From a virus (lineage: Duplodnaviria; Heunggongvirae; Uroviricota; Caudoviricetes): a stretch of DNA of 4,570 nucleotides. The position numbers and the translations under genes are program-made. The DNA lies in IMG/VR virus record IMGVR_UViG_2634166457_000015, one strand, 5' to 3'. Below, piece by piece: positions 1 through 4,570 of the stretch; the stretch's first letter is position 1; each line of letters starts with the position of its first letter. Under the pieces are notes generated by a model. It was not told where the DNA came from and made no database searches. It worked only from the letters and a program-made list of their open reading frames with translations.

Positions 1-63
1 AGCGTCACGGATAACGTCCGGTACAGTGATTTCAGTTGTACAATTGAACAGGTGGTGAACTGA
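1..63 (+). CDS. M: 3' end of minor tail protein M gene (partial; last 20 codons plus stop)
   Basis: Frame 1 is open from base 1 and translates to SVTDNVRYSDFSCTIEQVVN, then TGA at 61..63. The stop overlaps the L start by one base (TGATG), the coupling arrangement I recall for lambda M/L. The C-terminal ..EQVVN matches my recollection of lambda gpM. Only 20 residues are visible, so family assignment is weak. Confidence 0.55.
   Translation, partial: SVTDNVRYSDFSCTIEQVVN
50..58 (+). promoter_or_regulatory. Shine-Dalgarno-like element for L (AGGTGGTGA)
   Basis: A purine-rich AGGTGG lies about 7 nt upstream of the ATG at 63, inside the end of M. Confidence 0.5.
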
Positions 64-761
64 TGCAGGATATCCGGCAGGAAACACTGAATGAATGCAC
101 CCGTGCGGAGCAGTCGGCCAGCGTGGTGCTCTGGGAAATCGATCTGACAGAGGTTGGTGGAGAACGTTATTTTTTCTGTAATGAGCTGAATGAAAAAGGG
201 GAGCCGGTCACCTGGCAGGGGCGTAAGTATGAGGCATACCCGATTGACGGCAGCGGCTTTGAGATGAACGGCCGGGGCAGCAGTGCCCGCCCGTCGCTGA
301 CGGTGTCCAATCTGTTTGGCCTTGTCACCGGGATGGCGGAGGACCTGCAGAGTCTGGTGGGGGCCACGGTGGTCCGCCGCCGGGTGTATGCCCGTTTTCT
401 GGATGCGGTGAATTTCGTTGCGGGCAATCCGGAGGCGGACCCGGAGCAGGAGCTGAGTGACCGCTGGGTGGTGGAGCAGATGTCGCAGCTGACAGCCATG
501 ACGGCCTCGTTTGTGCTGGCTACACCGACCGAGACGGACGGAGCGCTGTTTCCCGGTCGCATCATGCTGGCGAACACCTGTATGTGGGATTACCGGGGAG
601 ATGAATGCGGGTATAACGGTCCTGCGGTGGCGGATGAGTTCGATAAACCCACCACCGATATCCGTAAGGACAGATGCAGCAAGTGCATGCGCGGGTGTGA
701 GATGCGCGGCATGGTGGCTAATTTTGGCGGTTTCCTTTCCATTAACAAACTTTCGCAGTAA
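63..761 (+). CDS. L: Tail tip assembly protein L (gpL family, with C-terminal Fe-S cysteine cluster)
   Basis: Complete 232-aa ORF, ATG 63 to TAA 759..761. The N-terminus MQDIRQETLNECTRAEQSASVVLWEIDLTEVGGERYFFCNE and C-terminus GNFGGFLSINKLSQ are recognisable as lambda gpL from memory. Cysteines at residues 173, 182, 205, 208 and 212 (nt 579..698). It sits between M and K as expected. Confidence 0.93.
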   Translation: MQDIRQETLNECTRAEQSASVVLWEIDLTEVGGERYFFCNELNEKGEPVTWQGRKYEAYPIDGSGFEMNGRGSSARPSLTVSNLFGLVTGMAEDLQSLVGATVVRRRVYARFLDAVNFVAGNPEADPEQELSDRWVVEQMSQLTAMTASFVLATPTETDGALFPGRIMLANTCMWDYRGDECGYNGPAVADEFDKPTTDIRKDRCSKCMRGCEMRGMVANFGGFLSINKLSQ

Positions 762-766
762 ATCCA

Positions 767-1510
767 ATGACACAGACAGAATCAGCGATTCTGGCGCATG
801 CCCGGCGGTGTGTGCCTGCGGAGTCGTGCGGCTTCGTGGTGAGAACGCCGGAGGGGGAGCGGTATATCCCTTGTGTGAATATCTCTGCAGAGCCGGAGGC
901 GTATTTTCGTATTGCACTGGAAGACTGGCTGCGGGCAGAGATGCAGGGGGAGATTGTGGCACTGGTCCACAGTCATCCCGGTGGTCTGCCCTGGCTGAGC
1001 GAGGCCGACCGGCGGCTGCAGATAAAAAGTGCACTGTCCTGGTGGCTGGTCTGCCGGGGGGAAATTCATAAATTCCGCTGTGTGCCACATCTGACAGGAC
1101 GGCGCTTTGAGCACGGGGTGACGGACTGTTACACGCTGTTCCGGGATGCCTACCATCTGGCGGGAATTGATATGCCGGATTTTGAGCGTGAGGATGACTG
1201 GTGGCGCAACGGTCAGAACCTTTACCTGGACAATATGGCGGTCACCGGCTTTTACCGGGTGCCCCTGTCCTCTGCACAGGCGGGCGATATCCTGCTGTGC
1301 TGCTTTGGCGCATCGGTGGCCAATCATGCCGCCATTTACTGCGGCAACGGTGAACTGCTTCACCATCTGCCTGAACAACTGAGTAAACGGGAGAGGTATT
1401 CCGAAAAATGGCAACGACGAACGCATTCTGTCTGGCGTCACCGCCACTGGCACGCATCTGCCTTCACGGGGATTTGCAACGATTTGGCCGCCGCCTCAGC
1501 CTGTATGTGA
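767..1510 (+). CDS. K: Tail tip assembly protein K (JAMM/MPN metallopeptidase-like domain fused to NlpC/P60-like domain)
   Basis: 247-aa ORF, ATG 767 to TGA 1508..1510. A JAMM-type motif HSHPGGLPWLSEAD (H-x-H-x7-S-x2-D) lies at nt 968..1009. An NlpC/P60-type Cys sits in DCYTLF (Cys codon 1127..1129), with His residues in NHAAIY and ELLHH downstream. The start is only 5 nt after the L stop and has no clear SD, so translation is probably coupled. The 3' end overlaps I by 103 nt. Confidence 0.88.
   Translation: MTQTESAILAHARRCVPAESCGFVVRTPEGERYIPCVNISAEPEAYFRIALEDWLRAEMQGEIVALVHSHPGGLPWLSEADRRLQIKSALSWWLVCRGEIHKFRCVPHLTGRRFEHGVTDCYTLFRDAYHLAGIDMPDFEREDDWWRNGQNLYLDNMAVTGFYRVPLSSAQAGDILLCCFGASVANHAAIYCGNGELLHHLPEQLSKRERYSEKWQRRTHSVWRHRHWHASAFTGICNDLAAASACM
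1389..1396 (+). promoter_or_regulatory. Shine-Dalgarno-like element for I (GGGAGAGG), inside the K coding sequence
   Basis: A purine-rich GGGAGAGG lies about 11 nt upstream of the ATG at 1408. The spacing is on the long side. Confidence 0.35.
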
Positions 1511-2088
1511 ACACGGCAGCGGAAGCCATCCGGGCGCTGTCGATGCAGATACCGGGATTCCGCCGTCAGATGAACGAAGGCTGGTACCAGATACGTATTG
1601 CCGGTGATGACACGGCACCGGAGGCGGTGTACGCCCGTCTTCACGAACAGCTGGGTGAGGGGGCGGTCATCCACATTGTGCCGCGACTGGCCGGGGCCGG
1701 AAAGGGTGGACTGCAGATTGTGCTGGGGGCGGCGGCCATCGTGGGGTCGTTCTTCACGGCCGGGGCATCAATGGCGTTATGGGGTTCAGCCCTGGCAGCC
1801 GGTGGTTTTTCTGCCACCACGATGCTGTTTTCACTGGGGGCCAGCATGATTCTGGGTGGTGTGGCTCAGATGCTGGCCCCGAAGGCTAAAGTACCGGAGT
1901 ACAAAAGCACGGATAACGGCAGACAGAACACGTACTTTTCCTCGCTGGATAACATGATTGCCCAGGGGAACCCGATGCCGGTGCCTTACGGTGAAATGCT
2001 GGTTGGCTCCCGGCGAATCTCCCAGGACATCAGCACCCGTGATGAAGGCGGTGACGGGAAGGTGGTGGTTATCGGGCGGCAGGCATAA
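1408..2088 (+). CDS. I: Tail tip assembly protein I (N-terminal ubiquitin-like beta-grasp domain, then Gly/Ala-rich hydrophobic segment)
   Basis: 226-aa ORF, ATG 1408 to TAA 2086..2088. ARICLHGDLQRFGRR, AEAIRAL, GAVIHIVPRLAGAGKGG, NTYFSSLDNMIAQGN, YGEMLVGSR and GKVVVIGR are recognisable as lambda gpI from memory. Its first 103 nt lie inside K in a different frame, the same overlap arrangement I recall for lambda K/I. Confidence 0.9.
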   Translation: MATTNAFCLASPPLARICLHGDLQRFGRRLSLYVNTAAEAIRALSMQIPGFRRQMNEGWYQIRIAGDDTAPEAVYARLHEQLGEGAVIHIVPRLAGAGKGGLQIVLGAAAIVGSFFTAGASMALWGSALAAGGFSATTMLFSLGASMILGGVAQMLAPKAKVPEYKSTDNGRQNTYFSSLDNMIAQGNPMPVPYGEMLVGSRRISQDISTRDEGGDGKVVVIGRQA

Positions 2089-2093
2089 AACAT

Positions 2094-2130
2094 AAAAAAT
2101 CCCGCAGTGCTCACGGACAGGAACTGCGGG
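2094..2130 (-). terminator. Intrinsic-terminator-like hairpin plus U-run, read on the minus strand
   Basis: CCCGCAGT (2101..2108) and ACTGCGGG (2123..2130) are exact reverse complements, giving an 8-bp stem with 6 G:C pairs and a 14-nt loop. On the minus-strand RNA the stem is followed by A-UUUUUU (plus-strand A-run 2094..2099). On the plus strand there is no U-run after it, so it is directional. The loop is longer than is typical for a terminator. Confidence 0.4.
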
Positions 2131-2190
2131 AGAGTTACGAAGATTAACTATAGAGAGTTATTCTTATGTCACGACAAAAAACATTAACGC
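2094..2190 (-). ncRNA. Candidate small RNA of about 95 nt, antisense to the late operon, in the I-J spacer (hypothetical)
   Basis: Bounded by the sigma70-like promoter at 2197..2224 (minus) and the hairpin/U-run at 2094..2130 (minus). It contains no ORF longer than a few codons. The region is AT-rich compared with the flanking genes. Sequence inference only. Confidence 0.2.
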
Positions 2191-2196
2191 AGAGAA

Positions 2197-2224
2197 ATTA
2201 TTAGCGCCACAGTCAGTGTGTGAA
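2197..2224 (-). promoter_or_regulatory. Candidate sigma70 promoter on the minus strand (-35 TTCACA, 16-nt spacer, -10 AATAAT)
   Basis: Read on the minus strand, TTCACA (plus 2224..2219) matches TTGACA at 5 of 6 positions and AATAAT (plus 2202..2197) matches TATAAT at 5 of 6, with a 16-nt spacer. The predicted start is near plus coordinate 2190, transcribing leftward. Found by eye and not scored. Confidence 0.25.
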
Positions 2225-2261
2225 AATGTGAAGATATTCAGAATTTTTATTCAGTCATGAT

Positions 2262-2295
2262 ACAGGCATCCTCCGGGATGCCTGTTGTTTTTGTG
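2262..2295 (+). terminator. Intrinsic-terminator-like hairpin plus U-run on the plus strand, 32 nt upstream of the J start
   Basis: ACAGGCATCC (2262..2271) and GGATGCCTGT (2276..2285) are exact reverse complements, giving a 10-bp stem with a 4-nt loop TCCG, followed directly by TGTTTTTGTG (2286..2295). This is the canonical rho-independent terminator shape. On the minus strand the hairpin is not followed by a U-run. Confidence 0.5.
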
Positions 2296-2314
2296 CGTAA
2301 CAGTTATCACAGTA

Positions 2315-2322
2315 AAGGGTGA
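2315..2322 (+). promoter_or_regulatory. Shine-Dalgarno-like element for J (AGGGTGAG)
   Basis: A purine-rich AAGGGTGAG ends 4 to 5 nt before the ATG at 2327. Confidence 0.5.
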
Positions 2323-2326
2323 GACA

Positions 2327-4570
2327 ATGGGCAAAGGTGGCGGCAAGGCGCACACGCCGGTAGAGGCAAAGGACAATCTTAAGTCCACGCAGATGATGAG
2401 CGTGATTGATGCCATTGGTGAAGGGCCGATTGAAGGTCCGGTGAAGGGGCTGCAGAGTATCCTGGTGAACAAAACCCCGCTGACGGACACGGACGGTAAT
2501 CCTGTGATACATGGTGTGACAGCGGTCTGGCGCGCCGGGGAGCAGGAGCAGACACCACCTGAAGGCTTTGAGTCCTCCGGGGCGGAAACCGCACTGGGCG
2601 TGGAAGTGACGAAGGCAAAGCCGGTGACGCGCACCATTACGTCCGCGAACATTGACCGCCTGCGGGTCACCTTCGGGGTGCAGTCACTGTTGGAGACCAC
2701 CTCAAAGGGCGACCGTAATCCCTCTTCTGTCCGACTGCTGATTCAGTTACAGCGTAACGGTAACTGGGTGACGGAAAAGGATGTCACCATTAACGGCAAG
2801 ACCACCTCGCAGTTTCTGGCGTCGGTGATTCTGGATAATCTGCCTCCCCGTCCTTTTAACATCCGGATGGTCCGGGAGACAGCGGACAGCACCTCGGACC
2901 AGCTGCAGAATAAGACGCTCTGGTCGTCATACACCGAAATCATCGATGTGAAACAGTGCTACCCGAACACGGCGATTGTGGGGCTGCAGGTGGATGCGGA
3001 GCAGTTTGGCGGTCAGCAGATGACGGTGAACTACCATATCCGCGGTCGCATCATCCAGGTACCGTCAAACTATGACCCGGAAAAACGCACGTACAGCGGC
3101 ATCTGGGACGGCAGCCTGAAACCGGCATACAGCAACAACCCGGCCTGGTGCCTGTGGGACATGCTGACTCACCCGCGCTACGGCATGGGAAAACGTCTGG
3201 GGGCGGCAGACGTGGACAAATGGGCGCTGTATGCCATTGCGCAGTACTGCGACCAGACGGTCCCGGATGGTTTCGGGGGCACAGAGCCGCGGATGACCTT
3301 TAATGCGTACCTGTCACAACAGCGTAAGGCGTGGGACGTTCTCAGTGATTTCTGCTCGGCGATGCGCTGTATGCCGGTATGGAACGGCCAGACGCTGACG
3401 TTCGTTCAGGACCGCCCGTCGGATGTGGTGTGGCCGTACACCAACTGCGATGTGGTGGTGGATGATAACGGCGTGGGGTTTCGCTACAGCTTCAGCGCCC
3501 TGAAGGACCGCCACACGGCGGTGGAGGTGAATTACACCGACCCGCAGAACGGCTGGCAGACCTCCACGGAACTGGTGGAAGACCCGGAAGCCATACTGCG
3601 CTACGGGCGCAACCTGCTGAAGATGGATGCGTTCGGTTGCACCAGTCGCGGTCAGGCCCACCGTGCCGGGCTGTGGGTGATAAAGACCGGACTGCTGGAA
3701 ACGCAGACGGTGGATTTCACGCTCGGGTCACAGGGGCTGCGTCACACACCCGGTGACATTATTGAAATCTGTGATAACGACTATGCCGGGACCATGACCG
3801 GCGGACGTATCCTGTCCATCGATGCCGCCAGCCGCACCCTGACACTGGACCGTGAGGTGACCCTGCCGGAGACAGGTACATCGACGGTGAACCTGATTAA
3901 CGGCAGCGGTAAGCCGGTGAGTGTGGACATCACCGCACACCCCGCGCCGGACCGGATACAGGTCAGTACCCTGCCGGATGGCGTGGCGACATACGGTGTG
4001 TGGGGACTCTCCCTGCCGTCACTGCGTCGTCGCCTGTTCCGCTGTGTTTCCATCCGGGAAAACACGGACGGCACCTTTGCCATCACGGCGGTGCAGCACG
4101 TACCGGAAAAAGAAGCCATCGTGGATAACGGGGCCAGCTTTGAGCCGCAGTCAGGCACCCTGAACAGCGTTATTCCACCGGCAGTGCAGCACCTCACGGT
4201 GGAGGTGAGCGCGGCTGACGGCCAGTATCTGGCACAGGCGAAATGGGACACGCCGCGGGTGGTGAAGGGGGTGCGCTTCAGTCTGCGACTGACCAGCGGA
4301 AGCGGAGAAGGCAGCCGTCTGGTGACCACCGCCATCACTGCGGATACAGAGCATCGTTTCAGTGGTCTGCCGCTCGGGGAATACACCCTGACAGTCAGGG
4401 CAATTAACAGTTATGGCCAGCAGGGCGAACCGGCCACCACCACGTTCAGGATTAATGCACCTGCGGTACCCGCCACGATTGAGCTGACACCGGGCTATTT
4501 TCAGATAACAGCGGTCCCGCGTCTTGCGGTGTATGACCCGACGGTACAGTTTGAGTTCTGGTTTTCGGAG
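2327..4570 (+). CDS. J: Host specificity protein J / central tail fibre (tip attachment protein), N-terminal 748 codons, truncated by the window edge
   Basis: ATG at 2327 opens a frame with no stop through base 4570 (2244 nt, exactly 748 codons). The translation begins [22 protein letters not shown] and contains [116 protein letters not shown] and [29 protein letters not shown], all recognisable as lambda gpJ from memory. It is missing from the ORF track only because it lacks an in-window stop. The C-terminal receptor-binding region lies outside the window. Confidence 0.95.

Follow-up and report, generated by a model that had tools for sequence, protein, structure and literature searches.

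A probable Rho-independent terminator upstream of the host-specificity gene J in a lambdoid late operon, next to a PasB-family small RNA gene on the opposite strand

The analysed window, a stretch of 4,570 nucleotides, contains the tail genes L, K and I and the 5' part of gene J, all of them on the plus strand (Table 1). Gene I ends at position 2088 and the ATG codon of J is at position 2327, so that 238 nt of non-coding DNA lie between the two genes and form the sole sizeable non-coding gap within the window. The closest relatives of this gap are found in Stx1a- and Stx2c-converting phages (95.8% identity over the gap) and in prophages of O55:H7 and other E. coli (100% identity). The earlier note treated the gap as empty. 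In fact, its minus strand carries a gene of the PasB/EcOnc22 family, which explains the signals resembling a promoter and a terminator that lie upstream of the hairpin considered here. The hairpin itself is located 173 nt past the stop codon of I, and the U-tract that follows it ends 31 nt short of the start of J. Several tiny ORFs in the gap (10-14 codons, lacking Shine-Dalgarno boxes) were dismissed upon visual inspection.

Table 1. Genes and candidate regulatory features of the window, in the order of position.
Feature	Position	Strand	Basis
Tail gene L	63-761	+	Pfam Phage_tail_L
Tail gene K	767-1510	+	Pfam JAB and NlpC/P60
Tail assembly gene I, upstream gene of the late operon	1408..2088	+	Pfam Lambda_tail_I, E = 3.3e-16; ORF list
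PasB-family (EcOnc22-24) Hfq-dependent sRNA gene	2093..2176 (5' end by homology, possibly ~2190)	-	Homology
Own terminator of the PasB-like gene, stem followed by UUUUUU	2131-2123 / 2108-2100	-	Sequence
Conserved seed-like UUAAUCUUC, just 5' of the PasB terminator stem	2148-2140	-	Sequence
Predicted sigma70 promoter-like TTCACA-16-AATAAT, pointing into the PasB-like gene	2197..2224	-	Consensus scan, 10/12 matches
Candidate CRP-like palindrome TGTGAAGATATTCAGA	2227..2242		1 match against 0.14 expected
Candidate terminator hairpin	2262..2285	+	Sequence, own scan, fold, kept in relatives
U-rich tract TGTTTTTGTG, directly 3' of the stem	2286..2295	+	Sequence
Shine-Dalgarno-like AAGGGTGAG of J	2315-2323	+	Sequence
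Tail-tip/host-specificity gene J, 5' part, runs off the window	2327..4570	+	Pfam FNIII-A_GpJ, Ig_J, Phage-tail_3

In the hairpin, a TCCG loop caps a perfect stem of 10 bp, six of them G-C (ACAGGCATCC-TCCG-GGATGCCTGT). The adjacent tract UGUUUUUGUG has U in seven of its ten positions, and can also be read as UUGUUUUUGUG, since the last pair of the stem is A-U. It is broken by a G, and therefore the efficiency of termination may be partial. A GC-rich stem (about 5-14 bp), a loop of 3-8 nt and a U-rich tract immediately 3' of the stem are the hallmarks of intrinsic terminators, and all are observed here; the position is also the usual one, in non-coding DNA downstream of a gene (I) on the same strand. 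Folded alone, the 42-nt element has an energy of -19.3 kcal/mol (z = -4.2), and equally good folds were obtained in 0 of 200 shuffles. Our scan for perfect stems of 9 bp or more followed by a T-rich tail detected this site as the only one in the window; with both strands counted, such a structure arose in 1 of 300 dinucleotide-preserving shuffles of the window. The reverse complement of the hairpin folds too, but there it is followed by AUCAUGACUG and has no U-tract, and therefore the appearance of a terminator is confined to the plus strand. Thus the perfect stem, the tetraloop and the T-rich tail described in the earlier note are confirmed by the sequence, the scan and the fold. Pairing of the 5' arm (CAUCCU) with the Shine-Dalgarno box of J (AGGGUG) was also considered and dropped, as it is far weaker than the hairpin.

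The I-J junctions were gathered from viral and genome contigs, and about 160 contigs have a gap of this type. The hairpin region is represented in them by 19 sequence variants, all of which retain the stem, and the hairpin is present in 25 of the 26 unique gap variants belonging to the length class of the window. In 15 variants, 98.7% of stem cells are paired, compared to 33-49% when the partners are slid. The pair at position 8 of the stem covaries, being C-G in eight variants, U-A in four and U.G in two: the window has the U-A type, the commonest types have C-G, and U.G is the intermediate. A C.A mismatch at the same pair was observed in four contigs. Two further pairs show one-sided changes only, pair 9 (C-G or U.G) and pair 1 (A-U or G.U). 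The earlier note had looked to compensatory changes in related prophages for verification of the stem. One pair indeed varies on both sides, but six pairs do not vary at all, and the shuffle control yielded 20/500; thus covariation appears to be supportive of the pairing, but thin. The loop sequences are TCCG, TCAG, CACG and CGGTGA. A run of four to six T begins one or two bases past the stem in every variant. The T-run is 93-100% conserved at 2286-2292, whereas its 3' flank is divergent.

Some assemblies assigned to unrelated taxa (Streptomyces, Bradyrhizobium, Shewanella, Paenibacillus and others) also contained I-J loci of the lambda type or of E. coli prophages. Most of these loci are on short contigs of low coverage, and contamination with DNA of lambda or E. 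coli is their probable source.

The minus-strand gene was identified by comparison with two groups of experimentally detected RNAs. The Hfq-dependent RNA PasB of EPEC E2348/69 was mapped by Pearl Mizrahi et al. to positions 1466343 to 1466261 (PMC8550237, table S6), in the orientation opposite to that of its neighbours E2348C_1436 and E2348C_1437 (PMC8550237), which according to RefSeq encode the tail assembly protein and gpJ, respectively. The E2348/69 gap is 240 nt long and can be aligned with the gap of the window at 89% mean column identity. The northern probe for PasB (PMC8550237, table S6) starts with AATCCCGCAGTG, which corresponds to positions 2098-2109 of the window. The window variant coincides with E2348/69 PasB in 59 of 83 nt (71%), a divergence exceeding that of the variants described as a few nucleotides apart. 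The likely seed of PasB was placed by Zhu, Shabalina and Storz (bioRxiv 10.64898/2026.05.13.724894) at the conserved seed-like stretch just 5' of the terminator stem.

The other group is formed by the Hfq CRAC peaks EcOnc22, EcOnc23 and EcOnc24 of EHEC Sakai (Tree et al. 2014, PMC4104026, table S2). The I-J gaps containing them belong to Sp15, Sp14 and Sp11, respectively, and the peaks are antisense to the tail genes. Northern blots gave a length of approximately 85 nt for EcOnc22, which becomes unstable when Hfq is lacking (PMC4104026). The published coordinates are those of NC_002695.1; in NC_002695.2 the same sites are shifted by about +128, as checked by the Rfam match of AgvB. In Sp15, the counterpart of the hairpin stem is at approximately 2,902,764 to 2,902,741 of NC_002695.2 (minus strand), and that of the U-tract at approximately 2,902,740 to 2,902,731. 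With uncorrected coordinates, an Hfq peak seemed to lie antisense to the hairpin; this was rejected, as the shift of about +128 puts the peaks on the PasB half of the gap. Thus PasB and EcOnc22-24 appear to be one family; the table of the EPEC paper lists no EHEC homologue for PasB (PMC8550237). Rfam contains no PasB model, and no match to any Rfam family was observed in the window at E <= 1. The window resembles the PasB and EcOnc22-24 loci in that the same I-J gap is occupied. In contrast, the hairpin is on the opposite strand and precedes the 5' end of PasB by approximately 85 nt, PasB being nearer to gene I; it lies outside the homology-mapped PasB transcript and does not belong to the PasB/EcOnc22 family.

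The predicted promoter of the PasB-like gene implies a transcription start near 2190, approximately 14 nt upstream of the homology-mapped 5' end, which is based on RNA coverage and on the size in northern blots (83-85 nt). This mismatch may be due to 5' processing, the use of another -10 box (GTTAAT, 2188-2183) or imprecise mapping. The candidate CRP-like palindrome, located between the PasB promoter region and the hairpin, shows 100% conservation in 27 gap variants and belongs to the block where conservation of the gap is highest. From the centre of the palindrome, the distance is 59-62 bp to the homology-mapped 5' end of PasB, but 44.5 bp to the start implied by the predicted promoter. The PasB level is higher in the non-activating than in the activating growth condition, which we take to be LB and glucose-containing DMEM, respectively, and the candidate CRP-like site could account for such condition-dependent expression. 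The segment between this site and the hairpin, TTTTATTCAGTCATGA at 2246-2260, is 81-100% conserved except for the variable position 2253.

The I-J gaps fall into several length classes: 57 nt including the J start codon in lambda (54 nt without it), 237-263 nt (the class of the window), 339-346 nt, and 854 nt. In the E. coli class of 339-346 nt, the PasB gene and a conserved block are common with the window up to approximately 2248 and are followed by unrelated sequence. About 104 nt upstream of J, the latter contains, in 12 of 12 variants, another hairpin, CCCCGGTATC-TGCT-GATACCGGGG, with TTTCTCTTT adjoining it. It may also be read as AACCCCGGTATC-TGCT-GATACCGGGGTT, with T-rich tails on both strands, and thus looks like a candidate bidirectional terminator. 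Between this hairpin and J, there is about 100 nt of unexplained sequence. In the 854-nt class, the PasB promoter region is replaced by a minus-strand sodC gene (Pfam Sod_Cu, 3.9e-32) with its own terminator, located between J and the PasB body stripped of its promoter region. Judging by this arrangement, PasB could only be obtained here via read-through from sodC. In the same class, the strict terminator scan found no sense-strand terminator before J, and therefore the element is dispensable in some phages. The breakpoint between the gap classes is at approximately 2248/2249; hence the hairpin goes with the J-leader module and not with the PasB cassette.

As far as can be judged from these classes, the I-J junction, immediately upstream of the receptor-binding gene J, behaves as an insertion site of morons, the independently expressed inserts of phage late operons. 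This is analogous to the ant moron, which is situated just 5' of the P22-like tailspike gene (PMC2629481). The junction likewise is a variable insertion site 5' of a receptor-binding gene, the inserts being PasB, PasB together with another hairpin, and PasB together with sodC. The plus-strand hairpin does not serve as the terminator of the moron itself, since PasB ends on the other strand and at the opposite end; rather, it behaves as a resident part of the operon.

Terminator-like hairpins are present between I and J in other phages as well. In lambda, the hairpin is AAACCGCC-TGCG-GGCGGTTTTGTCATTT (-16.5 kcal/mol, z = -3.9), and it is followed by a run of only four U. Sense-strand hairpins were found in mEp235 (GGCCACC-TTCG-GGTGGCTTTTTT), phiKO2 (GGCCACC-TTGC-GGTGGCTTTTTTT), phiES15 (GGCCGCC-TCCG-GGCGGCTTTTTT), Serratia phage Swain (AAAGCCCC-TATCCT-GGGGCTTTTTTT) and the virulent T1-like phage BrunoManser (GCCCGC-CTTGC-GCGGGTTTTTTTT). 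A Pasteurella phage has neither the I-J gap nor the hairpin. Among relatives of J from HK97/N15-like phages, a sense-strand terminator-like hairpin was observed 15-35 nt before J in 112 of 115 unique upstream segments, although these 112 examples are mutually homologous, and the number of independent sequence families across phages is about six, not more than a hundred. The control counts in this survey were 3 of 115 for the antisense strand and 60 of 805 for coding windows. The strict terminator scan missed the lambda hairpin, with its 4-U run, and the PasB terminator, with its 14-nt loop, and therefore its counts are conservative. The stems of different gap classes are unrelated in sequence, so that membership in the I|J terminator group is defined by position and anatomy alone. 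In BrunoManser, an extended -10-like sequence TGTATAAT occurs within 6 nt past the I|J hairpin. The arrangement suggests that J may begin a separate transcription unit in this virulent phage.

A search of the literature for a lambda I-J terminator yielded nothing specific. The GenBank entry of phiKO2 (NC_005857, 15298-15320) annotates a "terminator, putative" in the gap that follows the I-like gene 20 and precedes the J-like gene 21. The window hairpin is similar to it in the position after I and 15-35 nt before J, in the strand, and in its structure, a GC stem with a loop of 4 nt and a T-run behind it. The structures of the phiKO2/HK97 type consist of GGCCACC..GGTGGC followed by six or seven T in gaps of about 55-70 nt, and have no sequence similarity to the window hairpin. 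Unlike phiKO2, the window has the stem CAGGCAUCC, a U-tract broken by a G, and the PasB cassette between I and the hairpin.

Conservation in relatives, recurrence at the same position and the phiKO2 annotation all support the proposal of the earlier note that a Rho-independent terminator lies between I and the ribosome-binding site of J. We consider it probable that the hairpin acts as such a terminator in the plus-strand RNA and constitutes the local form of an I|J terminator that is conserved in position. This identification is supported by the retention of the stem and the T-run and by the occurrence of unrelated hairpins at the same position; of the sequence arguments, positional recurrence seems to be stronger than covariation. 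Thus the hairpin most likely represents an already known kind of structure, an ordinary intrinsic terminator inside a lambdoid late operon. With its hairpin and U-tract, it is similar to the canonical Rho-independent terminators of E. coli and to those in Q-antiterminated late operons. It differs from tR', a terminator located immediately past the late promoter and with a 3' end already mapped (StxS / 6S RNA), whereas the window hairpin is many kilobases downstream.

Polymerase modified by Q is expected to ignore terminators. In the proposed mechanism, polymerase unmodified by Q would transcribe gene I and the gap, the latter in the antisense direction across the PasB gene. It would pause on the U-tract, the 10-bp hairpin would form, and the transcript would be released at approximately 2286-2295, before the ribosome-binding site of J. 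During lytic growth, Q-modified polymerase coming from the late promoter would read through, and J would be made. The PasB cassette, comprising the sRNA, the promoter region and the CRP-like site, would in this arrangement be enclosed between the stop codon of I and the terminator. In Stx phages, expression of the late genes requires antitermination by Q at PR' (PMC7547250; PMC2629481). Since the late genes of these relatives are Q-antiterminated, read-through in lytic growth is consistent with established knowledge.

The benefit of such a terminator may be insulation of J and the downstream genes in the prophage, or else a transcription boundary before J. Insulation in the lysogen was the rationale offered in the earlier note. 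Insulation cannot, however, be the full explanation, since this arrangement is found in a virulent T1-like phage, too. A boundary or an attenuator before the large, low-copy J would be a more general reading.

One alternative is that the hairpin is an element of RNA stability or processing, either a barrier to 3' exonucleases protecting the tail mRNA or a 5' stabiliser of a processed J mRNA, and that it sets the relative amounts of tail proteins instead of terminating transcription. The stability of the fold (-19.3 kcal/mol) and the occurrence of the same arrangement in a virulent T1-like phage, which has no lysogeny, are in line with this, and if terminators are ignored by Q-modified polymerase, any role in lytic growth would be post-transcriptional. 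However, a barrier to exonucleases requires no U-tract, yet the T-run adjoins the stem in every independent version and is conserved while its 3' flank is not. Moreover, the T1-like hairpin is followed by TGTATAAT, which fits a boundary between a terminator and a promoter. A stability element of either type thus seems rather unlikely. It is extremely improbable that the hairpin is a functionless chance palindrome or a recombination scar. Most positions of the stem are invariant, and so their conservation could partly reflect recent common ancestry, but such a stem arose in only one of the 300 shuffles, non-homologous equivalents recur at the same position, and the compensatory change in the stem has a U.G intermediate.

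The remaining alternatives involve small RNAs. The hairpin might form the 3' end of a dedicated plus-strand sRNA, as the earlier note had also suggested. If transcribed divergently from the PasB promoter region, such an RNA would start near 2211-2236 and have a length of approximately 60-85 nt, similar to the prophage sRNAs AgvB and AsxR. Indeed, the region 2225-2292 is one contiguous, highly conserved block ending in the terminator, a hairpin with a U-run is a 3' end of the Hfq type, and direct reading reveals the weak -10-like sequences GAAAAT (2222-2227, preceded by TGT) and TATTAG (2199-2204). On the other hand, the consensus scan yields no plus-strand promoter, in agreement with the earlier note, where no convincing sigma70 promoter had been seen upstream on this strand. 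Data for homologous loci give no support either: none of the Sakai I-J gaps has a tail-sense Hfq CRAC peak, whereas the antisense peaks EcOnc22-24 are seen, and from this gap the EPEC RIL-seq table contains only PasB. There is no Rfam match. Finally, the 339-346-nt class shares the block only up to approximately 2248 and then has a different hairpin, and so the block behaves as regulatory DNA of PasB and not as the body of an RNA. Overall, a plus-strand sRNA is quite unlikely, and the conserved block 2225-2292 more likely serves the regulation of PasB. As regards the known prophage RNAs, AgvB and AsxR (RF02702, RF02703) are likewise short and end in an intrinsic terminator, but they are encoded at the PR' moron site and not in the tail region. 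Their covariance models had no match in the window at E <= 1, AgvB scoring 96.5 bits in the Sakai control. AgvB (anti-GcvB) had been suspected because of the minus-strand stretch CACAAAAACAACA near the hairpin; this was rejected, as AgvB maps to the PR' moron site and the stretch is upstream of the PasB promoter.

It is also conceivable, but very unlikely, that the terminator produces a discrete cis-antisense 3'UTR of I, fully complementary to PasB, which would titrate the latter. The argument is one of geometry only: the terminator is just beyond the whole PasB gene of the opposite strand, and in 25 of 26 variants of the window gap class both are present together. However, the same kind of terminator is found in lambda, HK97-like, N15-like and T1-like phages, which lack PasB, making an anti-PasB role unnecessary. 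In addition, the tail genes are nearly silent in the EPEC lysogen, with base means of 3-15 for E2348C_1433-1438 compared to 482-1082 for pasB. Even taken jointly, the two possibilities, that the terminator and the antisense PasB form one functional unit or that a divergent plus-strand sRNA of 60-85 nt originates from the PasB promoter region, are unlikely. If the terminator and PasB did act as one unit, low-level non-antiterminated transcription from I would be stopped to give a discrete I 3'UTR complementary to PasB, and rising activity of the late operon would neutralise the host-directed PasB before lysis.

Returning to the preferred reading, an I|J terminator, the hairpin helps to delimit the PasB locus: PasB and sodC are inserted between gene I and this boundary, which shows annotators where the cassette ends. 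By-products of the analysis are the location of a PasB-family gene in the window, the equation of PasB with EcOnc22-24, and the observation that a terminator before J is widespread by position. Within the I-J gap, PasB on the opposite strand is more interesting than the hairpin. As for the hairpin, a terminator just before the receptor-binding gene J is observed in lambda-like, HK97/N15-like and virulent T1-like phages, and is represented by at least about six unrelated sequences. This recurrence suggests a selected transcription boundary before J that has been little noticed so far.
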